A DNA stretch of 60,849 nt from a virus. Its lineage: Duplodnaviria > Caudoviricetes. Each line of letters starts with the position of its first letter. Position 1 is the stretch's first letter. A program made the position numbers and the translations under genes. Positions 2,637 to 15,799 of the stretch are shown here, in pieces. The notes under the pieces are model-generated. The model did no database searches and was not told the DNA's origin. It saw nothing but the letters and a program-made list of their open reading frames with translations. The DNA is taken from IMG/VR virus record IMGVR_UViG_3300042452_000489, positions 1-60,849 of that record. One strand, given 5' to 3'.

Positions 2637-2895
2637 GCTGCTTCCACCTCACCGTGATGAAGGTTCCGATCCACGCACCCGCAGCCAGAGGGAACAGGTA
2701 GAAGATGTTCTTGCTGTAGCTCACCACGCCGACCGCCAGCAGGGAGTAGAGGACCGACGACACCGAAGCCGCAAGTATGGGCCGGCGCTTCTCCACGCAG
2801 ATGATGTAGTAGGCGTAGAGCATGTCTACGATCACGTACACCAGGAAGATCAGGGCGGCCGTGGCATAAGAAAAGTCGCTATTCATTTCTTCCAC
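2629..2895 (-). CDS. Small multi-pass membrane protein
   Basis: Three hydrophobic segments; coupled to neighbouring genes. Confidence 0.7.
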   Translation of the reverse strand: MEEMNSDFSYATAALIFLVYVIVDMLYAYYIICVEKRRPILAASVSSVLYSLLAVGVVSYSKNIFYLFPLAAGAWIGTFITVRWKQHD

Positions 2896-3125
2896 TTGGC
2901 GTGTTGGAGTTGGGCATGACGAACCTCAATCTCAACGAGGTAGTCAAACTGCTCGCGGATCAGCTGGACCACCTCGGATGCACGCCTCCGGTCCAGCACC
3001 TTGCTGTTCTTGCCGATCCACGTGCCGACCGGATTGCCGAGCTGCATGTCCCGGCTCGGGTTCTCCGTCTCCCACCAGTAGTCCACGGTGAGGTTCATCG
3101 TCTTGGTGCGATCACCCGTCAGCAT
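2883..3125 (-). CDS. Hypothetical protein
   Basis: Fills the operon slot with overlapping start and stop. Confidence 0.55.
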   Translation of the reverse strand: MLTGDRTKTMNLTVDYWWETENPSRDMQLGNPVGTWIGKNSKVLDRRRASEVVQLIREQFDYLVEIEVRHAQLQHAKWKK

Positions 3126-3495
3126 TGTCAGGCTCCCGGGAGGCCATGAGGTTTCCGATTACCTCCAGCACATGGTTCGGCCTGGGCTTGGCCGCGCCCA
3201 GCGACAGGAGGTAGGACGAGAGAGTCTCGCCCGTCTGCCGGTCGGCTAGATCCGCGACCATCCGGCCGTACTCGTCTCGGATGTAGTCATGCGGGACGAG
3301 CATCAACCGCTCGGCGTCGGCGTGAATCTCGCACCAATCGACTATGTGGTTGGCCGCGTCGGCCTGACACCACACACCAGCGATCACCACTGCGATCTCG
3401 CATCGCGCCCTGGACAGAGGGCAGTAGGCCCTGACCTGCAGGGTGTCGTTGCGCGTGACCCGGGTGACCGTGACTATGGAGTGCGTGTCTTCCAT
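3112..3495 (-). CDS. Thermonuclease (SNase)-like protein with degenerate active site
   Basis: VTRVTRNDTL (cf. V-x-RV-x-DGDT), RDEYGRMVA (cf. DKYGR-x-LA), LSSYLLSLGAA. Confidence 0.6.
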   Translation of the reverse strand: MEDTHSIVTVTRVTRNDTLQVRAYCPLSRARCEIAVVIAGVWCQADAANHIVDWCEIHADAERLMLVPHDYIRDEYGRMVADLADRQTGETLSSYLLSLGAAKPRPNHVLEVIGNLMASREPDNADG

Positions 3496-3872
3496 GACCC
3501 GACGTTTCGCTCGCGTTCTTCTAGGTAGTAATCAGGGATCGGCGTGGGGTCATACCCGAGATGCTTCTTCCGCAGCAGGCTGGCCAAGTACTCCGCATCA
3601 AAGTTGTCGGGGTCCGACTCCAGCTTCGCCGTGAGAACTGAACTATTGTACAGGCTCGGGAAGTTTCCTGCAACTCGGCCCGAGTGAAGGATGTCATGAT
3701 CGCGATGACAAAGGCGAACGTAATTCCTCACATCGTTCTTGCGACCACGGCCGCCGATGATGTGATGAACGTCCAGCTTCCTGCGGCCATCTGATTCAGG
3801 CCACCAGCAGATCGCGCAGCAGCGATGCAGCTCCACCCACTCAAGCAGCGCAGCCTTCTCTTGCTTATTCAC
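3474..3872 (-). CDS. HNH-type endonuclease
   Basis: CAIC...LDVHHI...N...RLCHRDH. Confidence 0.75.
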   Translation of the reverse strand: MNKQEKAALLEWVELHRCCAICWWPESDGRRKLDVHHIIGGRGRKNDVRNYVRLCHRDHDILHSGRVAGNFPSLYNSSVLTAKLESDPDNFDAEYLASLLRKKHLGYDPTPIPDYYLEERERNVGSWKTRTP

Positions 3873-4281
3873 TGACCCGCTCCAGATCCCTGGTCAGGTA
3901 ATCGATGCACTTGGCCAGCCTGACGGTGGCCTCCTGCGACTTGCCCTGGCATGCCATGTTGCATGGGTGGCACAGAACCCCGCGGAAGTGACCGCCGTCA
4001 TGGCAGTGGTCGAACTTCTGCGAATGCGAATCCTCAAGCGGTGCGCCGCAAGACTGGCACGCCGGGATCTCCATGAAAAGCCGGACCTCATCCTTGGTCA
4101 GGCCATACCTGGAGGCGCGATGGACAACGCTATAGCTGTCGCGTCTTTTGTAGCCCGCCGTGGCGCGTGTCTTGCATTCCCTGCACCACGCCTGCAGCCC
4201 GTCCTTGCTTCGATTCTGGCGATGGAAGTCACCGACAGGCTTGACTTCACCGCAGCATGAGCATCGCTTCTCGGTCAGCAC
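3865..4281 (-). CDS. Endonuclease VII-like protein with N-terminal zinc finger
   Basis: CSCCG...FH...KDG...CREC, then YGLT...CQSC...DHCH...RGVLCHPCN; AAGGAG RBS with GTG start. Confidence 0.85.
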   Translation of the reverse strand: MLTEKRCSCCGEVKPVGDFHRQNRSKDGLQAWCRECKTRATAGYKRRDSYSVVHRASRYGLTKDEVRLFMEIPACQSCGAPLEDSHSQKFDHCHDGGHFRGVLCHPCNMACQGKSQEATVRLAKCIDYLTRDLERVSE

Positions 4282-4316
4282 ACTCCTTTGCGCTTCCCAT
4301 CTCCGTGGGTCGCGGG

Positions 4317-4346
4317 AGTGTACATCCGCACACCAAATTCAGTCAA
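4317..4346 (-). promoter_or_regulatory. Sigma70-type promoter for the nuclease operon
   Basis: TTGACT-N18-TACACT, 35 nt upstream of the EndoVII start. Confidence 0.6.
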
Positions 4347-4349
4347 ATG

Positions 4350-4607
4350 AACAGACCCCATCCCCGCCGAAGAGGCTGGGCCTCCCGGTTTGCCAAGGGG
4401 TTGGCACCGATGGTCGCCTTATCATTAGGCTCTTCGGCTTACGACCGGGACGTTGGGGTAATGCCGGATCTAATACCGGCCCGTTGCCCGGGTTTCGCGC
4501 GACCACCAGCTGGACTTCTGCGGACTAGCCGCTCCTGCGTAGGCAGGCTTTTCTTTAGGCTGGCGCTGTTATTAGCGTGCTAGACTGCCAGGAAATGACG
4601 CACGTGG
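4350..4607 (-). ncRNA. Candidate structured non-coding RNA
   Basis: No credible ORF and a dense set of hairpins (GCCGAAGAG 4366-4374 with CTCTTCGGC 4430-4438, TGCCAA/TTGGCA, GCCGG/CCGGC, CCTGC/GCAGG) between two promoters. Confidence 0.45.
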
Positions 4608-4613
4608 GGGAAC

Positions 4614-4641
4614 ACTGTAATTGTTTTGCTAGGAAAGTCAA
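4614..4641 (-). promoter_or_regulatory. Sigma70-type promoter upstream of the structured region
   Basis: TTGACT-N16-TACAGT in an AT-rich patch. Confidence 0.55.
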
Positions 4642-4711
4642 TCAATTCCAAGGCCGCTGGCGTGCGATTAGACGGCCGTTAAGGCAGGTGCGGCCAGATG
4701 GCGGCGTGTTG

Positions 4712-5329
4712 TCAAACGGGCGCCTCGCGTGCAGCCAGAGGCCCGTAGAAGTATCTCTCGTCCTTGCTGACGTCCCAGTCACAGGACTCGGCTTGGTACA
4801 CCTCCTCTTGGACGCAGTAGCCGCAGGCCCTCGGGTCTGGGTTGGAGCCGCAGAAATACCCGTCCTTCCATGCTATGCGATTTGTTGGCAGGGCGCAAAG
4901 GTTCCCGTCCTCCAAGGCCATGACATGGGCGCACTTGTTCTGCTCGGGAGTAAGCGTAAAACCTGGGCGCTCCAGCGAGCTGGGGAGCCAGTCTACCGTG
5001 AATAGATACTCACCGGACACCTTGCCTGACCGAAGGTAACAGTCGGCCTGATGGTCCCGCAGGTAGGAGAACACGGTCACCACCGGGCGGTCGGAGAAAC
5101 AATCCCACAGCTGGACATCCGGCAGCGATCTCCCGCCACCCATGCTCATCGACAAGGCATGGATCGGCACGCCACGGTAATGGGCACCCGACTTGAGCAT
5201 CACGTGGAAAGACAGGGCCCTGCCAGGAATGGACTGTATGGCAAAGGCATACGCTTCCTCATGCCCCGACTGTCGGCTAATGAACGGCCGCCGCACGTAG
5301 CACCGAAGGAATGGGATGTCAGCATTCAT
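4712..5329 (-). CDS. Phage hypothetical protein
   Basis: 205-aa ORF with globular composition (LWDCFS, GEYLFTVDW, NLCALPTNRI). Confidence 0.8.
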   Translation of the reverse strand: MNADIPFLRCYVRRPFISRQSGHEEAYAFAIQSIPGRALSFHVMLKSGAHYRGVPIHALSMSMGGGRSLPDVQLWDCFSDRPVVTVFSYLRDHQADCYLRSGKVSGEYLFTVDWLPSSLERPGFTLTPEQNKCAHVMALEDGNLCALPTNRIAWKDGYFCGSNPDPRACGYCVQEEVYQAESCDWDVSKDERYFYGPLAAREAPV

Positions 5330-5511
5330 CTTTGCACCTGTTGCAGGTTTCGGTTTTACGAGTCACGTTCTTGCTACCTGTCGCTGCCGGCGACAGGCGT
5401 GCCATGCAGCACTCGGTAACGCCGTGCCTCGCGTCCCGCGGCCGGGCGGCGCGGAACCGGCGGGGTGATATGCGGAACGACGGCGGCTATCAGGAACCGC
5501 ATAAACACTGG

Positions 5512-5863
5512 TTCTGTGGCTACTTGCTGCCATGCTCTGCGGGCGGCTCTGGCATCGGCATCCAATACTGCGGGCCGTCCACAGCGTTGTTCTCCCGGCA
5601 GACCTTGTAGGTGCCGACGCTGGTGTTGGGATACCACCAGCCCTCGCCCGCTGGGTCGATGGCTCCGATGTTGATGTCGAACCCGTCTTCCCACCATGCG
5701 TTTCGCACAATCCACACGCCTGCCGACCACCAGCCGACAAGGATGTCGGTGCCGTCCTTTGGTGCGGTTTCGATTGGCTGCCAGTTGTTGCCCATGTCTC
5801 CCTTTCTACGCCCACAGAACCAGCGGATGAAGCGGACGGCGGGGCCGCCGCTTATCCTGCGTG
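5512..5863 (+). mobile_element. Integron-type gene cassette carrying a reverse-oriented DUF551 gene
   Basis: Starts at G|TTCTGT (5511-5517) and ends in an attC-like site whose inverse core ACAGAAC (5814-5820) is complementary to that start. Confidence 0.6.
5520..5795 (-). CDS. DUF551-family protein
   Basis: WQPIETAPKDGTDIL...PQYWMPMPEPP; GGGAG RBS. Confidence 0.85.
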   Translation of the reverse strand: MGNNWQPIETAPKDGTDILVGWWSAGVWIVRNAWWEDGFDINIGAIDPAGEGWWYPNTSVGTYKVCRENNAVDGPQYWMPMPEPPAEHGSK

Positions 5864-5869
5864 TTCACT
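5814..5869 (+). other. attC-like recombination site
   Basis: AAC-CAGCG-GATGAAGC-loop-GCTTATC-CTGCGT-GTT: 5-nt spacer, 8-nt L box with one extrahelical base, 7-nt L box, 6-nt spacer. Confidence 0.65.
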
Positions 5870-6113
5870 TGAACCGCTCCAACAGCCCCCTCACCACGCG
5901 TTCCGTGAAGTCCGCGCAACGGTACGATGCGTCCTCCGCGACACCATGCAGAACATCCCGCTCCTCGTCGGTGAGCGTGAAGTTTTGTTGCGAGGAAACT
6001 TGACGCCGCAGCCGCTCAATCTCGGCCGCAGCCTCGTCCAGCAGCGCCATCGGCTCGCCTTCCTGCTCGGCTCGCAGTGATCTCTCTCGCAGCTCTTGCG
6101 CTATATCAGTCAT
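5865..6113 (-). CDS. Hypothetical protein
   Basis: MTDIAQELR...EAAAEIERLR...LTDEER, a common small-phage-protein pattern. Confidence 0.75.
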   Translation of the reverse strand: MTDIAQELRERSLRAEQEGEPMALLDEAAAEIERLRRQVSSQQNFTLTDEERDVLHGVAEDASYRCADFTERVVRGLLERFK

Positions 6114-6319
6114 ACCCCGCACTCCAGCAAGCTGCTCGGAATCATATTACGGATAGTCTCAGCCAAGTCAATCGTTTCGCTGTCGGCGTCACCGTGCTTG
6201 ATAAGAGATCGGCACTTGTTGTCGATGTCTGACAAAGCCCGCAACGCCTGCTGGCCAGACAGGGCAGCATGAAACTCATAGTCGTCGTCAGGCAGCGTGA
6301 AGTTTAGCGAGGCGCGCAT
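6110..6319 (-). CDS. Hypothetical protein
   Basis: GGAG RBS; ATGA coupling to the next gene. Confidence 0.75.
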   Translation of the reverse strand: MRASLNFTLPDDDYEFHAALSGQQALRALSDIDNKCRSLIKHGDADSETIDLAETIRNMIPSSLLECGV

Positions 6320-6417
6320 GGTGGACTCCAGAGGTTAACGAGAAGCAAAAGGACGGCAAGAACACCATAGAAGTACAGGTCCGGCATGATGTCGATGATT
6401 GTTAGCAACTCCCCCAT
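6304..6417 (-). CDS. 37-aa hydrophobic peptide
   Basis: Manual translation MGELLTIIDIMPDLYFYGVLAVLLLLVNLWSPPCAPR fills the gap. Confidence 0.4.
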   Translation of the reverse strand: MGELLTIIDIMPDLYFYGVLAVLLLLVNLWSPPCAPR

Positions 6418-6420
6418 ACG

Positions 6421-7026
6421 CTAATAAGCCTTTCTTTCAGACGGTTTACTTCCGCCTCTAAAATCCTTATGCGTGCCGCGAGAATAGAATTCGCGCTCCT
6501 CAGTCTCTCCTCCTCCGTGGAGGAACATGTCGGTGTCGCCATCGACAAGGTCAAGACAGTGGTGCGGGTACAGCAGATAAGTAAGCTGCTCGGCTGGTCG
6601 CAGGAATCTCCTGGGGCAGACGAGGGTGGGGACGTCATGCCCTCGGCCGCGGTCATAGACGACTTGCTCGGTCCAAGAGTCATCTCGGTCAAGGGTGGTG
6701 AGCCACACCCAGCAGCCTGTGGGCTTGGAGATGTACACGTAGGCGATGTGCCCAATGCGCTCTCTCGCAAGTCCTCGCATGTCGTCAACGAACACGGTGT
6801 CATATGGGTAATCTTTCGGTGACGAGAACGTCAGCGACCTCTCCTTGATCTCCACGCTCATCAGGGCCACGGCGTCAGGCGACTCTACGTGGTCGGTGAG
6901 CTTGTTGTGCCTGCCGATGACCAGCTTCTTTCCGTGAGCCACTGAGCGTCCCTGGCTTCGCAGGTCGTCCACCCAGCGGCGCTCGGCTGCATGGCCATCA
7001 GCCAGTGATGTACGGAACAAACGCAT
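6421..7026 (-). CDS. Putative PD-(D/E)XK-fold nuclease
   Basis: G-x-x-AE...SPD...VEIK motif; GGAG RBS before the ATG at 7026. Confidence 0.55.
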   Translation of the reverse strand: MRLFRTSLADGHAAERRWVDDLRSQGRSVAHGKKLVIGRHNKLTDHVESPDAVALMSVEIKERSLTFSSPKDYPYDTVFVDDMRGLARERIGHIAYVYISKPTGCWVWLTTLDRDDSWTEQVVYDRGRGHDVPTLVCPRRFLRPAEQLTYLLYPHHCLDLVDGDTDMFLHGGGETEEREFYSRGTHKDFRGGSKPSERKAY

Positions 7027-7501
7027 GTCTACTCCATGACAGTGCGGCAACCTCAACTCTCGGCATCCGGACTCCCGCGAACCGACCAGACGCATGCAGA
7101 TCCAGTACGGCCACGGCGATCTCCGCGGGGCTCGGGTAGTCCGGCTGCAGGCCGTCATCCAGCCACTCCAGCTGGCTCGGGATGTATTCCTCCTGGCGGA
7201 TCTCGTCGGCCTGTGACCTCACAACCGAGGCCCACCGCGTGGACCGCCCGAAGATTTCCCCGATGTCCTCGTCATCCAAGCCAGGGTCCAGCATCGCCAC
7301 CACCGCCAGCCGTTCGTCGCTCGGGATGGACCTGCAGGCCCGCAGGATCTTGACGACGCCTACGACCTGGGATGGCTCAAGCCCGATCTTCTCGGCCACT
7401 CGGCTCGGCGTCTCCCGGTTCGTCACGCACCTCCGGTGCAGCTCCTTTGCCATACCCAAAGCATGACGCAATCCATCGACGCATCCGAGTCCACCAGCCA
7501 T
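6998..7501 (-). CDS. Putative helix-turn-helix DNA-binding protein
   Basis: Two HTH-like segments (PSRVAEKIGLEPSQV; DEDIGEIFGRSTRW). Confidence 0.5.
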   Translation of the reverse strand: MAGGLGCVDGLRHALGMAKELHRRCVTNRETPSRVAEKIGLEPSQVVGVVKILRACRSIPSDERLAVVAMLDPGLDDEDIGEIFGRSTRWASVVRSQADEIRQEEYIPSQLEWLDDGLQPDYPSPAEIAVAVLDLHASGRFAGVRMPRVEVAALSWSRHAFVPYITG

Positions 7502-7622
7502 CTCGCTTCTCCTCCTTGATGAACGTCTGCGGGAACACGTGTTCGACATCGAACACGCTGATCACTTCCTCAACATCAACCAGACAGTCGGGCCGCTTGC
7601 TGCTTGTGGTCACGGCGAGCAA
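7377..7622 (-). CDS. Hypothetical protein
   Basis: Fills the operon slot; start uncertain. Confidence 0.4.
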   Translation of the reverse strand: MLAVTTSSKRPDCLVDVEEVISVFDVEHVFPQTFIKEEKRDGWWTRMRRWIASCFGYGKGAAPEVRDEPGDAEPSGREDRA

Positions 7623-8616
7623 TCTCCTTCCGGAACAGGGTCTGCACCCACCCCTTGGTTGAGCCGGCCGCCCAGTGCAGATAGCCAGAGGGCAGGGCCC
7701 CGAGCTTCATGCCGCCGTACTTGCCGCGGAGTGGGTTCTTGTAGGTGCCGACCGAACGCACGGCGCGTTCGCTCAGGTCGATCTCTTGTCCGCTCACCCG
7801 GCCCTCGGCACGGCCGGCGGTGTTCCTTCGCATGGCTTCGATCTGCTGGGCAGCGGCCACCTTCGCGGCCTCCTTCGCCGCCAGTTCTGCCATCTCCTCC
7901 GGTGTCAGCGGAGCCTCGGCAGCGGCCTTTCGGACAGCCTCCTTCACGGCCTTGTCGCCGTCGCAGAACATGTCCACGCTGGTGAAGATGGACTGGTCCA
8001 ATGATCCGCTGGTGCAATCCACCAGCTTGAAGCGGCTCTTGGTGCTGGCGGCAATCGCTGCAATGCGTGACTCCACGGTGCTGCCGTCGAAGTCCACCAC
8101 GCCGGCCAAGGGTCTGGTCGCCCGGCCGACGCACTGCAGCCAGAACGACCGTGATCGGGTTGGCCTGCCGAGGATCAGGGTTTCAGTGGGTGGGTAGTCG
8201 AAGCCCACGGCCACCACCACGCAGTTGCAAAGCACCTTGGCCTCGCCCGCCTTGAACTTCCGCAGGGCCTCGGCCCGCTCGTCGTCGTCTTGGTCGCCCC
8301 ATACTTCAACAGCCGGGATGCCGTAGTTGTGGTTCAGGTAGTGGCACGCGCCATGCATGGAGAACACCGAGCCGCAGAACAGGACAGTCGGCCCCTGCAT
8401 TTCCTCCGCGGTAATCATGCACAGCCTCTGCAGGTTCGGTTCCTTGTTCAGCTCGGCCTGGAGGGCTTGCTGGGCGAAGTCGCCGCCGACAACCTTCACT
8501 GCGCTTAGGTCCAGGCTGTCTACTCGGGCGAGCCGGCACACAGGCGGAACGGCCCATCCGTGGGCGATGGCCCAGTGCAGGTCGTAGCCTCCGATGAGTT
8601 GTTCGTAGAACTGCAT
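7576..8616 (-). CDS. SF2 helicase C-terminal half (RecA2 domain plus tail)
   Basis: VLFC, VLCNCVVVAVGFDYP, LGRPTRS...QCVGRATR (motifs IV-VI); own GGAG RBS and ATG at 8616. Confidence 0.85.
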   Translation of the reverse strand: MQFYEQLIGGYDLHWAIAHGWAVPPVCRLARVDSLDLSAVKVVGGDFAQQALQAELNKEPNLQRLCMITAEEMQGPTVLFCGSVFSMHGACHYLNHNYGIPAVEVWGDQDDDERAEALRKFKAGEAKVLCNCVVVAVGFDYPPTETLILGRPTRSRSFWLQCVGRATRPLAGVVDFDGSTVESRIAAIAASTKSRFKLVDCTSGSLDQSIFTSVDMFCDGDKAVKEAVRKAAAEAPLTPEEMAELAAKEAAKVAAAQQIEAMRRNTAGRAEGRVSGQEIDLSERAVRSVGTYKNPLRGKYGGMKLGALPSGYLHWAAGSTKGWVQTLFRKEIARRDHKQQAARLSG

Positions 8617-9119
8617 TGCTCTCTCCGTAGCATGGGCTTGCCGTCCATCCTGAACGGCGTGGCTGTGAATCCGGCGACCATGGCGCCGCTTTCCTGAAAC
8701 CACCGCAGCATCTCCACCACTGCGGGGCTGCACATCAGGTGTGCCTCGTCAACAATCACCAACTGCATGTCCTTGAATCGCTTGTATCGATGCTCACCGC
8801 CACGCTTGGAAAGCAGCGTGGGCTTGCTCGCGACGACGATCTTGGACGGCCACATGTCGTCCTCGTCGCTGACATAGCTCGCCATCTCAACGCCCGGGTC
8901 CAGGTCGCATATCTCCCGCACCTTGGAGACTGTCTGCCAGACCAGCTCGCGGAGGTGGCACAAGATCAATGTCCGTCCCTTGATCCGGTCGGCCATGGTG
9001 ACGAAGCACACGGTCTTCCCAGCCCCGGTGAAGAGGTGGTTGAGCGTGGCCTTCACTCCAGACTGCATCGCAGTCAGGTTGTCGGTGACCAACTGTTCTT
9101 GGTAGTCGCGTAGTTTCAT
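8520..9119 (-). CDS. SF2 DEAH helicase N-terminal half (RecA1 domain)
   Basis: LRDYQ (Q motif), TGAGKT (Walker A), IVDEAH, GFTATPFR. Confidence 0.9.
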   Translation of the reverse strand: MKLRDYQEQLVTDNLTAMQSGVKATLNHLFTGAGKTVCFVTMADRIKGRTLILCHLRELVWQTVSKVREICDLDPGVEMASYVSDEDDMWPSKIVVASKPTLLSKRGGEHRYKRFKDMQLVIVDEAHLMCSPAVVEMLRWFQESGAMVAGFTATPFRMDGKPMLRREQCSSTNNSSEATTCTGPSPTDGPFRLCAGSPE

Positions 9120-9523: not shown

Positions 9524-10173
9524 GCTTGGACCTCCTCCTTGTCCCAGACCTTCCTGAACTCGGCCTCCACCCGATGGAACACCTCCACCGGGATGGCCTT
9601 CTCTCTCGCTCGCAGACGAACCGTATCCAGTGCCTTCTGGGCATGCTCCCGACTGTCGGCCTTGGCGACCGCGCTGATCGCGTCCTGCTGGTAAGCAAGA
9701 TGCTTCGCAGTAGCCGTGCCGACCCGGGCTTCCGGCCTGGGGGCAGGCTGCTCGCTCACGCTGTGTCCGTCGTCGTCAGCCTCTCCACTGAACCCGCCGA
9801 CCAATGCCATGAGTAGGGTCCGCTTGGCATAGGTCATCGCAGCCCCGAACGCCTGCATGTCGCCCTTGGGCATCAGCAGCGGGGCCACTCCAGAGATCCA
9901 CTGGCCACCCTTGTGACGCAGCGTTCCGACGACGATCCACTGACCGCCCACCAGCCCCGGCCTGAAGTCAGGAAGGGCCAGCCCATGCTTCGTCAGCGGC
10001 CCGCGGAGCGAATCGCAGCACTGGGCGTAGCTGGCGAACTTGCTCTTGAAGTGCGGGTTGTTGCTGTCGTAAGCCACAATCGGATACTCGGCCTGCGCCT
10101 TCGCCAGGGCCTCGGTGATGGCATTCGTCTCGGGGCTGCTGCTAGGCCCAAGAATCGCGTTGTTGTCGTTCAT
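9520..10173 (-). CDS. ERF-family single-strand annealing protein
   Basis: ALAKAQ...NPHFKSKFA...GAAMTYAKR...DDDG. Confidence 0.9.
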   Translation of the reverse strand: MNDNNAILGPSSSPETNAITEALAKAQAEYPIVAYDSNNPHFKSKFASYAQCCDSLRGPLTKHGLALPDFRPGLVGGQWIVVGTLRHKGGQWISGVAPLLMPKGDMQAFGAAMTYAKRTLLMALVGGFSGEADDDGHSVSEQPAPRPEARVGTATAKHLAYQQDAISAVAKADSREHAQKALDTVRLRAREKAIPVEVFHRVEAEFRKVWDKEEVQA

Positions 10174-11021
10174 ACGTTCACGTACTCCTCTCCACGGGTT
10201 GCCCACGCCGGCACGGCCAGCTCAACGATCTCGTTGCTGTCGGCGGGCATGTAATGTCCGGTGGACCTCCGAAGCCGGACCTCCTCCATGACGTTGAGCA
10301 TCCGCTGGCCAGCCTGCTCAACCATTTCCTCTGGCAGGTAAAACACCCTGCACCCGTACGGCGGCGCCGTCTGGACAAAGACGAACGGCATCCGGTGTTG
10401 CGGATAGCCGACCGCCTTGGCCGACTCCACGTACAGCCACTCCTGCTCGGCGTACCCGTAGTCGATGACGCTGCGGTAGATGCGATCCCAAGAATGGGAG
10501 GTGGTCTTGAGATCCCACCACCTTCCCGTGCAGCAGGCATCGGGCCGGGTCTTGAGCTTGTGACCACCGATCTCAAAGAAGACGCTGACCTGCGTCTCCA
10601 CGGTCTTCTGCATCAGGTCGTAGGCCGCGTCGTTTTCGTACATGCCGTTGAGCATGAACCGAAACTGCGAAGCCTGATCTTCCGTGCAGATGATCCCCGT
10701 CTGGGCGCTTGCCCACTCCTTGTACGCCTTGGTGCTACGGGATCCGTTGGCACCCAAGATGTCCGCTGGCGGGATGTTGATCAGGTCATCCAGCTTCTGT
10801 CCGGACAAAACCCCAGTGACGATGGCGTCGAACGACGAGCCAACGCTGGTGGCATTGTTTCCGGACCAGTAAACATTCCCCATGTCGATCCACAGCTGCA
10901 CCTCGCCGCCGTGCTTGGCGACAGTGTGCAGGAACGACCGGGAATCAAACCCCTTCTCGCCGTGGTAGGCCGAGTTGCTCATGCCAACCACCTTGGTCGG
11001 CAATTCATTGATGCTGCTCAT
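10170..11021 (-). CDS. PD-(D/E)XK exonuclease (RecE/DUF3799-like)
   Basis: MSNSAYH, KTRPD, DLKTT, YGYAEQ-x-x-x-Y, FVFVQTAPPY; adjacent to ERF; GGAGG RBS. Confidence 0.85.
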   Translation of the reverse strand: MSSINELPTKVVGMSNSAYHGEKGFDSRSFLHTVAKHGGEVQLWIDMGNVYWSGNNATSVGSSFDAIVTGVLSGQKLDDLINIPPADILGANGSRSTKAYKEWASAQTGIICTEDQASQFRFMLNGMYENDAAYDLMQKTVETQVSVFFEIGGHKLKTRPDACCTGRWWDLKTTSHSWDRIYRSVIDYGYAEQEWLYVESAKAVGYPQHRMPFVFVQTAPPYGCRVFYLPEEMVEQAGQRMLNVMEEVRLRRSTGHYMPADSNEIVELAVPAWATRGEEYVNV

Positions 11022-11247: not shown

Positions 11248-11265
11248 CAACTGAGCTAGTTGCCC
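11248..11265 (-). other. tRNA 5'-end-like fragment, candidate attP core
   Basis: GGGCAAC-TA-GCTC-AGTTG fits tRNA positions 1-18; no anticodon or T arm follows; 85 nt from the integrase start. Confidence 0.45.
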
Positions 11266-11274
11266 GTTGGTCCG

Positions 11275-11302
11275 GTTATAGCGGTTTTTCAGGGGGGTGC
11301 AA
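11275..11302 (-). promoter_or_regulatory. Sigma70-type promoter for the recombination arm
   Basis: TTGCAC-N16-TATAAC, flanked by the inverted repeat TGCCCGTTG (11261-11269) / CAACGGGCA (11300-11308). Confidence 0.55.
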
Positions 11303-11349
11303 CGGGCATCCTCCTGGCTGTACTCTCCCACCCGCCGGGAGTACTCACC

Positions 11350-12249
11350 ATGAGCATCACCGAGTTCGCACGTTCCTACTGGCGTAGGGTTGGCGGGAGC
11401 CCCGGCTACCTGGAGCAGCTCTTGGTTCTGACCAAGCGTCTGCCATGGCAGGCGTCCGACTTGACGCCCGACAACATCGACAACTACTTGGACAGCGCCT
11501 TGGAGCATCTCTCGCCCTCCACCGTGGCCAACCACAGACGCATGCTGCGGACGCTCATGCGGTTCGCCGCAGAGCAGGGTCACGTGGACAAAGATATAGT
11601 GAGGCCGCTCAGGAGAGTCAAGACCCCGGCCCCATGCCCAATCGCCTTGGACCATAGGCAGATAGCCCACTGGGTCAGCACAGCCAAGGCCATGCCCGGC
11701 GGCACGCTCACGTGTCCGTACAGGCTGCTGCTGCCGGCGTGGATTCTCACTGCCTACAGCACAGGCTTGCGAACAGGCGACTTGCTCGCGATCAGATACG
11801 ACCAAATCCGTGGTCACCGACTTCTCCTTAGTCAGCTCAAGACGTCAGAGCCGCATGTCGCGTGGCTTGACGACTCCGCCATTCTGGCGATTGAGTCCCT
11901 CCCTCGTCGCGGCCCGAAAGTCTTCGGATCGCTGACGAACAAGGACCGGATTTTACACGCGATGCGGCGGCTCGTCAAGCAAGCCGGTCAAGGCGGGACG
12001 ACGAGATGGCTCAGAAGAGCAGGGGCAACCTACTGTGAAGCCGCCGGGAAAGATGCCACTAGACACTTAGGACACAGGGATCCCGGCATGAAGAAGCGGT
12101 ACATCGACAGGCTGCTGCTGGCGGAGCTGACGGAGCATGGTCCGACCGCACCGCCAATCCCCGAGACGATGCTCAGAGGCCAGCCAGTTCCTCCAGCCGG
12201 TTCTGCTTCTTCCGCTCGCGAGCCCGCTGTGCCGCTTCGGACTGGATGA
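11350..12249 (+). CDS. Tyrosine recombinase / integrase
   Basis: SPSTVAN core-binding helix, TGLRTGD (Arg), QLKT (Lys), WLRR in place of HxLR, HLGH, RYI (Tyr); GGAG RBS. Confidence 0.88.
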   Translation: MSITEFARSYWRRVGGSPGYLEQLLVLTKRLPWQASDLTPDNIDNYLDSALEHLSPSTVANHRRMLRTLMRFAAEQGHVDKDIVRPLRRVKTPAPCPIALDHRQIAHWVSTAKAMPGGTLTCPYRLLLPAWILTAYSTGLRTGDLLAIRYDQIRGHRLLLSQLKTSEPHVAWLDDSAILAIESLPRRGPKVFGSLTNKDRILHAMRRLVKQAGQGGTTRWLRRAGATYCEAAGKDATRHLGHRDPGMKKRYIDRLLLAELTEHGPTAPPIPETMLRGQPVPPAGSASSAREPAVPLRTG

Positions 12250-15200
12250 TCTTGTAGAGAAGGTATAGCCGCTTCTGCTCGTCGGGCATGTTGGCCAAGA
12301 CATCGTCTGGCACGGCGAGGTTTTCGTAGGTCCGCACCCCGGGCGTCGTCTCAAGGATGCTGTTGAGCATGTCCCTAGCCGCGAGCCGCTTGGCCCGATC
12401 CTGATCAACGTCCGTGAGCTTTGCGCCAGCCAAGAGATTAAAGGCCGCCTTCTGCATGGCCTCGCCCGTGGTGAGCCGGTCGTCCGTAGCCTGCCGATAC
12501 AGGCCAAGCCCACGTGAGCCGAACGGGACGAAGTTGACGATGGCCTGCTCTAGCGGCCGTCCCATGGGCCCGAGGTCTTGTTCTAGGACAGAGTACAGGT
12601 CGCTCAGTTCACGCCCGCTGTAGAGCTGGCGGTTGGTGATGTACTCAATGGGAGCCTTGATCAGCGGGTTGGTCATCCCGAGGATGTTGCTGCCCGTCTT
12701 CCGAATGGAATCTGCCAGCCGGGCCGAGGAAGACGCACCAACCCCAGGCGAGAAGAGCTGGAACGTACTCTCCCACGGCAGGTCCACGTTGGTCAGGTAT
12801 CGCTTGAGTTCCTCGTTGCCAGACCCTCCGAGGAGCCCAGGCAGATCGGCCGGCAGCGGGATGGCTGCGGACTGCCGCAAGTACTCGGGGACGAACGAGT
12901 CTGCGGACGGCTCGGTGCCCCTCGTCACGGCACGGATCAGCTGGCTCTGCAGACCGCCCGGCCGCTCCACAAGGTTGGTGGCAATGCTAGGCAGGATGCC
13001 CTTCTGGAAACTGTAGAACGGCAGAACCCTTTTCAGGCCACGCTCAAACCCGGTGAAAGACGACGGGCGGTAATCCACGTTCGCCAAGAACGAGATGTCG
13101 GCTGCTCGGCGAGGATCGACGCCCTTGCGAAGCTGGTTGAGGAACACGCCTCCGCGGAGCGAATCTTCCACCCGTTGGCCAACGGCGTCGTTCAGCACCA
13201 AGAGTGGGTTGGTGTTCTCACGCATGGGGTTCTGCGTGAATCCAACGCCCCGCATGCTGGTCATGTCGTTGGCAAACTGCCGCCATGACCTCCCAGGCTG
13301 GTAGGCCGCCCGCCCAACACGCTGTGCGATGGTGTCCTTGTCCGCACCCAAGAACATGCCAGACATGGTGGACTCGGGAGCGCCGGTGATGTCGTCCAAG
13401 ACATTGCCGCCGGTCACCTGAGTAGCGCCGGTGAAGTCCAGATACTTTGCGATGCGCTCTTCGTCGGTGAGGTTCTCAAATCCCGGGGCGTTTCGCAAAC
13501 GCTTGGCGATGGCCCGGTAGTCACCCCGGCTCGCCCTGCCCGCAGCGAGCATGTCGCGGAAGTTGAACGCCCCGTGCGTGGCGGCATTGATCGCACCGCT
13601 GTAGGCGTTCCGCGTGTGGAAGCTCGGGCTTGCCAAGGCCCCAACCTTAAAGGCCGAGGTGAACTGATCGACGGCACCCATCAACCCACGCTCAGGCATG
13701 GCCAGCCGGGTCTTAGGCGACAGCGTCTTCAGAGCCTCCACTGCCTTCTCGTCCACCGAGAAGTTGGTGACGTCCGCTGACATGGAGGACTGCCATCGAC
13801 GGCGGAATGCATTGGGATCAAACCCAAGCGTCTTGGCGGCCTCGGCCAGCGGGATGCTCGTTCCGCCCGTCACAAAGTCGGCCGGGGTGTTCGCGGCTTC
13901 TTGCGTCAGTTGGCGGAACAGTTCGTCGGCATTGGCCTTGTTCGTCGCTTGGCCAGCCCGATAGCGAACCATGTTCGACCACGGGTCCGAGTCGAAGATG
14001 CCGCGGTTGTTTGCGGCGAACTGCGTATCGGCCGAGCGAAGAAGGTCGGCAAGCTGCTTGTAGTAGCCGCCGATCTGCTGGTTAACGTCGGCCAGCATCT
14101 TGGCTTGCCCGGCCGTATCAGCAGCCTGGAACGCAGCCGAGTTGGTGACGTCATCGATCCATGGCTGGTACGGAGACTGAATGCCAATGCGGTTGAAGGC
14201 GGTGTCCAAAATGCCCCTGACCTGATCGTCGCTTACCCCGAGCAAGTCTTTCTGGAGTTGGACCGAATCCAGCCTGGGGTCGATGTTGCCCGTCAACTGG
14301 CGGAAGGTCCGCATCCCGCCCGGGATGTCGGTGTACGCCTGCCGCGGACGACCGAAGTTATCCCGCACACCGAACAGCCGCTCGTCGCGGCCCCATGCCT
14401 TGGGAGAGTTCTTCTTGATCCCTTCCGGCGGAGCGTTCTTGCGGAAGAAATGCAGCTGCCTCGGGAACCATCCCGTCCCCTGCTGGCTGGACCATCGCGT
14501 GGTGGGAAGCCCGGCAGAATCTGCAACGGCGTTGAAGTAATTGCCCATCCCCGCAAACTCGTCCCGCACGTTGCGGAACTCGGGGATGTTCTCCATCACC
14601 CAGTCGGCCATGGCATCGCCGCTGCCTCGCGACGATGAGTAAAACAACCCTGACGGCAGCGAAGGGCCCTGCTGTGCAGCCGGGCGAACTCCACCACCCT
14701 CGGCCCAGTCGGCCATGGCCTGACGAAGGCGCTGACTGCCGAACGAGCGAAGTTCCTCTGGGATGGCTTGCCCGGCAAGGGATCCCGCGGACGTCGGGAA
14801 GAACTCCGGAGCCGACGCCTCCAGTGCCTCGCGCTGCAGTTTCGACAGCCGAAGACGGTCGGCAAACAACTCGTCGTCCGCGTTGCGAAAGGCCCGCCGT
14901 GCGGCGCTCTGAATCTTGTTGGTCGTCTCCAAGTCACGCGACCAGTACTCGCCCGCCCGGTTGTCGAAGGCCGAGGACAGCCACGTAGCGGCGTGGCCGA
15001 TGATCGGCGTGGTGCGGGTGGCATTGCCGAGGGCGTCACCAATTTTCGCAACCGCATCTCCGCCGCCGAACGGGAGGTCGTAGTTAAATCCGATGTTCGT
15101 CCCGGGGATACGGAAGTCCCCGAACGTCGCCATCGTCTCGTCTAGGGCCTCATCACCTACGCCGAATCGCTTGAACTGCGACTTCAGAGTCTTCTCGGCC

Positions 15201-15799
15201 TCGGCCCGGGCGGCCAAGTCGTTGATCTTGCCGAGCTGCTCGCGAGGCGTGGTGCGCCGCATGTACTCGCGGACACCGCTGATGCCCTTGGTGTCGGCGG
15301 CATCCAGGGCGACGTTGCGCAGAAGGCCCGATGCTTGGGCCGCCTTGCCCGCAGCCGTCTTAGCCCCTTGACCGAACAGGGCGCTGACGCCGAGCGTGCC
15401 GTAGGTCAGCGGGTCAAGAAGCACCTCCGCCGCCAAGCCGCCCGTGAAGTTGCTCCAATTGTCGTCCTCGCCGACGAGGTTGTACTGACGAAGCAGCTCT
15501 CGTCCGGTCACCCGGTCGTCGGACGAGCCCAAGAAACTCAGCGGCTTGCCAGCGAGGATGCCGCGAACCAAGGCGCCCGGGGTATCTAGGATGTACCCGG
15601 CAGTCGCCAGACCAGATGATCCGGCCTTGGCAAGCGCCTCAAGCATCCCGCCCTGCTCCTCCTCTGGCATGAGGTCGGAGATGCGAGGTCGCCGTTTGCG
15701 AATCGCGAACGGCTCTTCGTCCTCCAGCAACCCGAGGTCGGCAAGCTGCCTGACACGCTCGTCCGGATCGAAGATGTCGAACAGCGGGGACTGCGACAT
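12173..15799 (-). CDS. Large internal virion (DNA ejection) protein, about 1208 aa
   Basis: Last and largest gene of the structural arm; SPSFHTRN and PFYSFQK segments are typical of podovirus internal proteins. Confidence 0.7.
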   Translation of the reverse strand: MSQSPLFDIFDPDERVRQLADLGLLEDEEPFAIRKRRPRISDLMPEEEQGGMLEALAKAGSSGLATAGYILDTPGALVRGILAGKPLSFLGSSDDRVTGRELLRQYNLVGEDDNWSNFTGGLAAEVLLDPLTYGTLGVSALFGQGAKTAAGKAAQASGLLRNVALDAADTKGISGVREYMRRTTPREQLGKINDLAARAEAEKTLKSQFKRFGVGDEALDETMATFGDFRIPGTNIGFNYDLPFGGGDAVAKIGDALGNATRTTPIIGHAATWLSSAFDNRAGEYWSRDLETTNKIQSAARRAFRNADDELFADRLRLSKLQREALEASAPEFFPTSAGSLAGQAIPEELRSFGSQRLRQAMADWAEGGGVRPAAQQGPSLPSGLFYSSSRGSGDAMADWVMENIPEFRNVRDEFAGMGNYFNAVADSAGLPTTRWSSQQGTGWFPRQLHFFRKNAPPEGIKKNSPKAWGRDERLFGVRDNFGRPRQAYTDIPGGMRTFRQLTGNIDPRLDSVQLQKDLLGVSDDQVRGILDTAFNRIGIQSPYQPWIDDVTNSAAFQAADTAGQAKMLADVNQQIGGYYKQLADLLRSADTQFAANNRGIFDSDPWSNMVRYRAGQATNKANADELFRQLTQEAANTPADFVTGGTSIPLAEAAKTLGFDPNAFRRRWQSSMSADVTNFSVDEKAVEALKTLSPKTRLAMPERGLMGAVDQFTSAFKVGALASPSFHTRNAYSGAINAATHGAFNFRDMLAAGRASRGDYRAIAKRLRNAPGFENLTDEERIAKYLDFTGATQVTGGNVLDDITGAPESTMSGMFLGADKDTIAQRVGRAAYQPGRSWRQFANDMTSMRGVGFTQNPMRENTNPLLVLNDAVGQRVEDSLRGGVFLNQLRKGVDPRRAADISFLANVDYRPSSFTGFERGLKRVLPFYSFQKGILPSIATNLVERPGGLQSQLIRAVTRGTEPSADSFVPEYLRQSAAIPLPADLPGLLGGSGNEELKRYLTNVDLPWESTFQLFSPGVGASSSARLADSIRKTGSNILGMTNPLIKAPIEYITNRQLYSGRELSDLYSVLEQDLGPMGRPLEQAIVNFVPFGSRGLGLYRQATDDRLTTGEAMQKAAFNLLAGAKLTDVDQDRAKRLAARDMLNSILETTPGVRTYENLAVPDDVLANMPDEQKRLYLLYKIIQSEAAQRARERKKQNRLEELAGL

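Follow-up and report, generated by a model that had tools for sequence, protein, structure and literature searches.

How does a small phage gene come to lie between two short sequences that recall the gene cassettes of bacterial integrons, and which enzyme could have put it there? The question is raised by positions 5512-5863 of the IMG/VR virus record IMGVR_UViG_3300042452_000489, a genome of 60,849 bp rated 100% complete, which was analysed over its full length and is called the window here. A sequence-only reading had noticed an attC-type hairpin beside a 91-aa gene and had taken the two for an integron-type cassette. Our comparisons confirm the observation and support the interpretation: with a probability of roughly 78%, the segment is an integron-type gene cassette in a complete 60.8-kb phage without an integron integrase (IntI), mobilised by an integrase of the host. 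The cassette and its immediate surroundings have the following features.

5512-5863, plus strand: gene cassette of 352 bp, from the TT of the first GTT to the G of the second GTT, both limits being breakpoints in other phages.
5814-5869, top strand plus, folding 'bottom' strand minus: attC-type recombination site, recognised by its fold, by covariance model R1 and by the presence of the site type in 51 viral stretches.
5508-5519: left arm of a 12-bp inverted repeat, holding the first cassette bases, which are complementary to R''.
5812-5823: right arm of the same 12-bp inverted repeat, holding R''.
5454-5513, plus strand: conserved array-end site at which cassettes and phage backbone meet, placed like an attI; it has a small hairpin and no R1 hit.
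5520-5795, minus strand: cargo gene of 91 aa, which starts with WQPIETAPKDG, ends with YWMPMPEPP and reads with the phage early genes.
5796-5813, minus strand: cargo leader with a GGGAG ribosome-binding site, which moves with the cassette (conserved in alignment A1).

The hairpin has the geometry that the sequence-only reading gave it. Its R'' box is ACAGAAC (5814-5820) and its R' box GTTCACT (5863-5869); AAGCGG/CCGCTT form the L boxes, which contain bulged bases, and the apical loop measures 3 nt. The segment 5806-5875 folds as a single imperfect stem-loop on either strand, in which GAAC (5817-5820) pairs with GTTC (5863-5866), and in the minimum-energy folds of both strands the AAC and GTT triplets are paired at the base. 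The inner stem AAGCGG/CCGCTT is extended by CGGC/GCCG, with three bulged bases in total and a 2x2 internal loop beside the R box; the L'' and L' repeats are thus imperfect, with extra unpaired bases, and the spacer between R and L is unpaired as well. On the minus strand two of the bulges are found in the 3' arm and one in the 5' arm. The fold energy is -17.0 kcal/mol on the plus strand (z -3.1; 2 of 200 shuffles were as stable) and -16.9 kcal/mol on the minus strand (z -3.0). The Rfam scan of 4500-7000 gave nothing relevant, and an unrestricted scan of the window for GAAC...GTTC hairpins was unspecific, with 92 matches mostly in coding DNA.

A home-made covariance model was trained on sites that adjoin integrases. 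A profile of seven integrases gave at least 540 relatives in viral contigs, of which 80 loci were kept, and the detector found 22 sites in 16 of these integrase loci. Sixteen sites are on the integrase coding strand, upstream of the integrase; in a divergent integron, attC bottom strands have this position and polarity. Their consensus is closely like that of the phage sites, including the conserved (bulged) T before CCGCT, and AAC and GTT are invariant. The model, R1, was built from these 16 integrase-linked sites, and the window was scanned whole, on both strands and with filters off. It turned out that 5814-5869 on the minus strand, the strand implied by the sequence-only reading, is the sole match with E < 1 in 60.8 kb (23.8 bits; E 0.002, a rough value), while the next best match has 12.5 bits and E 1.1. 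The attC covariance check that had been proposed was thus passed, in a test that is partly circular. With one R1 match, the window does not reach the two-site rule for a cluster of attC sites lacking integron integrases (CALIN), whereas two relatives do reach it, L042 with 7 matches and L118 with 13 in 5.4 kb.

The two arms of the inverted repeat are 12 nt long, 100% complementary and 292 nt apart, and bracket the 91-aa gene exactly as had been claimed. Exact matches of the 9-mer CCACAGAAC occur in the window only at these two arms. The bases after G|TT are complementary to the cassette's own R'' over 12 of 12 nt, as is expected of a gene cassette.

The limits of the unit were found by comparison with other phages. 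Relatives of the cassette protein are present in 8 viral loci. Six loci (L038-L043) match the window between 4000 and 7500 only from about 5504/5511 to 5865/5866, with 94-95% identity (blastn), while in 37 loci recruited via the neighbouring 205-aa gene both neighbours of the cassette match at ~70% and the cassette does not. In the gene orientation of alignment A1, the shared block starts exactly at the AAC after the stop codon of the upstream gene and stops exactly at ...TAGCCACAGAAC. On the plus strand these limits are the GTT at 5511-5513 and the GTT at 5863-5865, giving a repeat unit of 352 bp, so that the limits and length proposed from the sequence alone hold in other backgrounds. The 355-nt stretch 5511-5865 is whole in 11 loci, some of which overlap on the same contigs; they represent 3 flank contexts (94.6-98.9% identity), and the window is a fourth. 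The upstream flanks are unrelated among the contexts and diverge right after AAC/GTT. In L040, the downstream flank is a homologous array-end site and only the upstream flank is unrelated. Besides, most of the partial matches (72 of 79) begin at cassette base 1, which means the same attC type with different cargo, and L044/L045 hold an 87% relative without the hairpin.

A few further arrangements were seen in these loci. At 909-1181 and upstream in L042, a gene of the 91-aa type keeps its 3' limit and is fused in frame at its 5' end to the front of an 'LTxEER' gene and lacks its attC; this looks like a deletion that joined a backbone gene to a cassette. In L040 (3848-3930) and L042 (about 640-720), a unit of ~80 nt without an open reading frame (ORF) stands between a small backbone gene and the cassette; it contains a long-loop stem followed by a T-run and has GAAC at both ends. 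An apparent empty site in L069 is the end of another cassette and was set aside.

To describe the site type more widely, we summarized the hairpins of the viral loci. The same architecture precedes many small genes (for example in L001, L042 and L043) and reads, in gene orientation, AAC, 9 nt, a 6-bp stem, a loop of 3 to ~50 nt, the stem complement, CAT plus 6 nt, and GTT. The two sides of the 6-bp stem covary (AAGCGG/CCGCTT, CAGCGG/CCGCTG, CAGGAG/CTCCTG, CAACGG/CCGTTG). The 5' arm of the window type is found in 51 viral stretches, and a second 5'-arm type in at least 138. These hairpins bound small-gene cassettes that stand in arrays. A pattern detector recovered 452 elements (224 distinct sequences) in 238 viral loci with 881 kb in total, and 7 in shuffled copies; the element lengths cluster at 41-48 and 79-83 nt. 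The number of loci is not a count of distinct phages, since shared 60-mers link the loci through the attC sites themselves.

Two properties of this family describe how its units are built. The first is the complementarity of unit ends, for which the sequence following the GTT of one site was compared with that preceding the AAC of the next site. Beyond the triplets, the complementarity extends over 4.5 nt on average and over at least 4 nt in 121 of 158 non-redundant consecutive pairs, compared with 1.6 nt for the upstream bases of the same site and 1.8 nt for permuted partners. This is the signature expected if each unit had passed through a circle closed at that site. The second is the position of the breakpoints. 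Among pairs that share the start of the cargo, similarity is lost at GTT in 0 of 90 distinct flank combinations and ends at the AAC of the upstream hairpin in 40 of 90; most of the remaining pairs stop at differences of loop length, which the ungapped walk cannot cross. Among pairs that share the end of the cargo and differ downstream, 33 of 37 break at the next AAC or no more than 25 nt beyond it, and 2 of 37 at the far GTT. Each unit therefore consists of a hairpin and the gene downstream of it, with a crossover point at AAC when read on the gene strand and at G|TT when read on the plus strand of the window.

These data bear on the simplest alternative, namely that a chance hairpin and a chance inverted repeat surround an ordinary phage gene. 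By our own arithmetic, 60 kb of sequence, hence every such window, should contain about one 12-bp inverted repeat within 400 nt, so the repeat is not significant alone, and the second hairpin, in the array-end site, is no more stable than shuffled sequences. The exact placement of the repeat and the complementarity of unit ends across the family set it apart from chance, and coincidence is further contradicted by identical limits in other backgrounds, by hundreds of sites, by the model match and by the integrase-linked arrays described below. We regard coincidence as next to impossible.

The site family also occurs in bacterial integrons that carry an integrase. An 18-mer of the commonest site type had 62 matches in a collection of species-representative genomes; 54 of them lack the full element and are probably chance matches (~17 are expected at uniform composition, by our own arithmetic). 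Full elements are present in 8 loci of 7 assemblies. The integron integrase model TIGR02249 scored above its curated cut-off in 4 of 5 tested element-bearing assemblies, versus 0 of 14 control genomes, and in two assemblies the integrase and the elements are on the same contig.

L308: 15.8-kb contig of a Cyanobium culture assembly with 66% G+C and bacterial genes (ABC transporter, recR, lipoyl-synthase-like radical-SAM).
L309: 7.6-kb contig of a Planctomycetaceae metagenome-assembled genome with ABC, rhodanese and ROK genes.

In L308, the IntI gene is at 9903-10991 (457 bits), and the array then extends to the contig end. It contains a mazE/mazF cassette (Pfam) with a textbook-like attC of ~100 nt (R boxes CTCTCTAAC / GTTAGAGAG), and three phage-type cassettes, which have their ORFs on the other strand. 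A junction at G|TTAGAGAG connects the final phage-type site with the canonical mazEF cassette, so both kinds of site have been used at the same point and with the same polarity. In this contig, R1 matches both canonical mazEF attC sites (29.4 and 25.7 bits), the three phage-type sites and one more site, all on one strand; a stringent single-hairpin scan found one site only. In L309, the IntI gene is at 1047-2180 (444 bits), and the cassette next to it agrees with that of the window in attC type, in leader and in its ends (GTTCTGTGG / CCACAGAAC). The cargo of this cassette is a true DUF551 protein (46.7 bits), and a second cassette has the ends GTTAGGTGC / GCACCTAAC. Over 100-220 nt, the cargo DNA of the bacterial cassettes shares 80-92% identity with cassettes of the viral loci, and the two array contigs carry no phage genes.

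Some features of these integrons were noted in passing. The mazE/mazF cassette of L308 is present in two tandem copies (14197-15719). In both L308 and L309, intI and the attC top strands have the same orientation, so that intI does not diverge from the array; a divergent layout, the usual one, is seen for the 16 integrase-linked sites in loci of the viral contig collection. Among the at least 540 stretches of that collection that encode close relatives of integron integrases, some adjoin canonical attC sites.

Which enzyme would act on the phage sites? That no IntI is evident in the phage, as the sequence-only reading had remarked, agrees with our search: TIGR02249 had no match in the window, so there is no adjoining intI as in a complete integron, and none in 5 related viral records, four of which are at least 90% complete. 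When two integrases were compared by tblastn with all array loci, the only match was on the bacterial contig that L249 and L309 have in common, and the flanks of the viral array loci gave none. Given no IntI in the phage or in the five related records, a lone attC cassette served by a host integrase is the best reading; we infer the enzyme, its origin from the host and the timing of recombination. The sequence-only reading had also named a recombinase of the phage itself as a possible enzyme.

11260-12249, plus strand: Xer-like tyrosine recombinase (Pfam Phage_integrase, 28 bits; weak NCBIfam XerC/XerD; no TIGR02249), on the strand opposite to the early genes.

If this enzyme recombined the sites, the phage would run a cassette system of its own, which would fit with the lack of a detected IntI in the window and the related phage records. 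All 3 near-complete related viral records contain a homologue of the recombinase, and in L040, a viral record of 70 kb, a Xer-like recombinase (2734-3597) is located immediately upstream of the small backbone gene and of the cassette. On the other hand, the protein is only weakly Xer-like, with 27-34 bits to Xer models whose cut-offs are 279-335, and its relatives are 25-51% identical, whereas the attC sites are near-identical across backgrounds. The same sites also stand in arrays beside true IntI genes on bacterial contigs without phage genes. Nothing points to the recombinase at 11260-12249 as the enzyme, and we consider this explanation unlikely. In the same region of L040, past the array-end site (4396-6292), there are two converging genes, by eye a sugar-nucleotide epimerase and a dehydratase; this region may be a prophage edge or hold serotype-conversion genes.

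On the side of the cassette away from its attC, the sequence-only reading had seen a second hairpin and called it the recipient site. The hairpin is there (TATGCGG at 5469-5475, CCGCATA at 5497-5503), and the stretch around it is a conserved array end: in gene orientation, the sequence after the cassette begins AAC CAGTGTTTATGCGG and recurs behind many different last cassettes, always joined at AAC, and the similarity of other loci to the left flank of the window stops exactly at 5510. The hairpin is not unusually stable (z -1.4 on the plus and 0.0 on the minus strand, comparable with shuffles), and 5454-5513 was rejected as a second attC for lack of an R1 match. Its likeness to an attI is one of position and a few bases only.

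Under a host integrase, recombination might proceed as follows. The attC at 5814-5869 can fold as single-stranded DNA on the minus ('bottom') strand into a hairpin closed at its base by GAAC/GTTC, followed by an unpaired spacer and a bulged L-box stem that ends in a tiny loop. The integron integrase of a host would bind this structure and exchange strands between G5863 and T5864, with the array-end site (G5511|T5512) or another attC as partner. The outcome would be the excision of a 352-nt circle, in which R' would read GTTCTGT, or the insertion of a different cassette.

The cargo itself is less clear than the site. In the sequence-only reading it was a DUF551 gene, of which only a marginal likeness remains: the 91-aa protein has no Pfam or PHROG match at E <= 0.01, and Pfam DUF551 scores 11.5 bits (E 0.56), under the gathering cut-off of 22 bits. 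Only a C-terminal WMPxPxPP motif is common to it and the true DUF551 cassette protein, so by sequence it would be a distant DUF551 relative at best. The claim that the cargo is opposite to the attC top strand holds for the window and is a rule across the whole family; the cargo is therefore read with the phage early operon. Among 171 distinct family cargos, the forward ORF is the longer in 140 and spans at least 70% of the cargo in 148, whereas the reverse strand does so in 60. For the long sites, the longest forward ORF starts in the attC loop in 66 of 107, and this loop holds a ribosome-binding site and a start codon, so that many proteins share attC-encoded leaders. The cassettes appear to be built for bottom-strand expression, with the long-form attC supplying ribosome-binding site, start codon and a short leader peptide. 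The 169 cargo proteins form 100 clusters, and among 99 cluster representatives 12 have a Pfam match at E <= 1e-4 and 87 have none. The matches include DUF551 (a cluster of 27), Dam, N6_N4 and C-5 DNA methylases, HNH and HTH_17, followed by HAD hydrolase, MUG113 and two weak zinc-ribbon-type ones. Judged by such profile matches, the cargo seems to be mostly tiny ORFs without a Pfam family.

The position of start codons in the loops also suggests a different explanation: the hairpins at the 5' ends of early genes would be regulatory structures, of RNA or DNA, that act for example in translation control or transcript processing, and the mosaic limits would come from ordinary recombination. Such structures would account for the 66 of 107 ORF starts, and the phage encodes Erf and SSB, which could serve homologous or microhomology recombination. 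Near-identical hairpins with both flanks different are the expected residue of recombination within repeats. A comparable case is known from the promoter early stem-loop (PeSL) cassettes of T4-type phages and the short boundary sequences of lambdoid phages, which act by homologous recombination within the repeat; as there, repeated intergenic stem-loops limit exchangeable small early genes here. Unlike PeSL, the sites described here have a breakpoint at a fixed triplet and complementary unit ends, and they belong to the attC family by the model and by linkage to IntI. Recombination within repeats leaves unexplained why the far end of a unit is complementary to the bases after its own hairpin and not before it, why the breakpoint is at a 3-4-nt AAC and not within 40-80 nt of shared sequence, and why the sites stand in line with canonical attC sites beside IntI. 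As for the regulatory part, a terminator scan of 5200-6300 listed two other sites and the hairpin on neither strand, no T-run follows the hairpin, and no promoter-like site was found on it in the scan of the same range. The sequence-only reading had named, as one part of its refutation, a hairpin that fails the attC model and acts only as a terminator; this hairpin matches R1 and is not terminator-like. We regard a regulatory origin of the whole pattern as quite unlikely, while the hairpin may have a regulatory side-role.

For field data, we searched lake metagenomes, and lake-water runs of several years contain the cassette stretch. In four of these runs, the depth over 5772-5905 is up to about tenfold or more higher, which is consistent with a high-copy repeat. 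Lake contigs end or diverge at 5511, at 5816-5818 and at 5861-5866, and one loose end at 5511 continues into a neighbouring cassette of the L043 type. The joints 5516>5815, 5524>5805 and 5527>5804 were not counted, having sides of < 31 nt beside the inverted repeat.

Several points weigh against an integron-type cassette moved by a host integrase. The test with R1 is partly circular, because a pattern derived from phage elements served to select its training sites. The textbook consensus of R boxes is RYYYAAC / GTTRRRY, and the boxes of the window match it only at AAC and GTT. Other cargo on the same attC type was found, as the sequence-only reading had suggested looking for, but no empty site: among the loci compared, no relative has both window flanks and an unoccupied site. 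In the lake data, no contig of the four runs joins 5511 to 5864 and there is no circle junction, in a search of assembled contigs where absence says little. In the family, most pairs of near-identical sites (>= 95% identity; 1734 of 2081) differ on both flanks, and one G|TT crossover alone does not explain near-identical attC sites with two different flanks. The IntI of a host is assumed, and the comparison with GenBank phages, by DNA and by the portal protein, gave no hint of the host. Finally, we infer recombination from sequence comparison, with no event seen directly.

How the system relates to known ones can be summarized from three sides. The part of Qi et al. 2023 (PMC9892861) used here reports integron parts in 21 of 10,705 NCBI phage genomes, 17 CALINs among them. 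It also shows that IntI1 recombined 5 of 6 phage-borne attC sites and did so more efficiently on bottom than on top strands. As far as that part describes them, the phage attC sites and CALINs resemble the present ones in the AAC/GTT hairpin, the bulged L boxes, the variable loop, the G|TT crossover and the ends complementary to R''; their phages too have no integrase and carry DNA methyltransferase cargo (here Dam, N6_N4_Mtase and C-5 methylase). Judged by the same part, the differences are that the cargo here is antisense to the attC top strand family-wide, that the ORF of long-form sites starts inside the attC loop, and that the present lineage is uncultivated and has no GenBank phage relative, whereas theirs are NCBI phages. 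In the window, unlike a CALIN, only one attC is supported by the model.

Large sedentary chromosomal integrons, such as the one with the Vibrio cholerae repeats, have homogeneous attC sites. The present arrays resemble them in carrying many cargos on near-identical attC sites, in density (13 sites in 5.4 kb of L118) and in the mazEF cassette of a linked bacterial array, and differ in that they reside in phages without intI, are transcribed with the phage early genes and carry tiny-ORF cargo. Phage-borne attC clusters were thus already reported in 2023, and the kind is known; the window adds a new member, which belongs to an unusually cassette-rich lineage. Our literature search found no description of lineage-wide arrays, of antisense cargo with starts inside the attC, or of cassettes common to phages and integrase-linked bacterial arrays.

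The genome around the cassette is that of a tailed phage with matches to portal, head and virion proteins, and it also encodes, besides Erf and SSB, a helicase and a nuclease. GenBank phages gave no DNA relative of 4000-7500 and none of the portal protein. The minus strand carries every gene around the finding; in reading order, the 85-aa gene (5865-6122) is followed by a 69-nt gap that contains the hairpin, the 91-aa gene (5520-5795), a 190-nt gap and the 205-aa gene (4712-5329).

5865-6122, minus strand: backbone gene of 85 aa upstream of the cassette, with a stop codon that overlaps the R' box; it is the other end of the one-cassette array.

Within this backbone gene, at 5956-5981, a 23-26-nt stretch encoding 'LTDEER' is 100% identical across dozens of otherwise different small genes of viral loci. 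It is also present in a cassette of the bacterial integron L308 (13934-13956), and genes of the 'LTDEER' family are cassette cargo in other loci. About 1.2 kb downstream of the cassette, an HNH gene (3474-3872) and an endonuclease VII gene (3865-4281) are adjacent in 3474-4281, and HNH genes are cassette cargo in relatives (L122). At 7576-9119, the helicase is split into two overlapping ORFs, of which one encodes Helicase_C (7576-8733) and the other ResIII/DEAD (8520-9119). The split may be genuine, or it may reflect a frameshift or a start that was set wrongly.

In conclusion, one cassette has led to hundreds of attC sites of uncultivated lake phages and ~100 cargo protein clusters, where integron parts of phages had been reported only recently and, in the part of PMC9892861 used here, as rare. 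Should host integrases act on these sites, there would be a direct trade in small genes, DNA methyltransferases included, between phages and chromosomal integrons, and the early-gene mosaicism of the lineage would have a site-specific mechanism. A wider reading, which we offer tentatively and hold to be doubtful, is that a lineage of ~60-kb lake phages keeps integrase-less arrays as a platform for exchanging accessory early genes, borrows the chromosomal integrases of its hosts and shares a cassette pool with them. If this were true, phages could be a source of new integron cassettes and not just their carriers, which would bear on the unsolved question of where cassettes come from.

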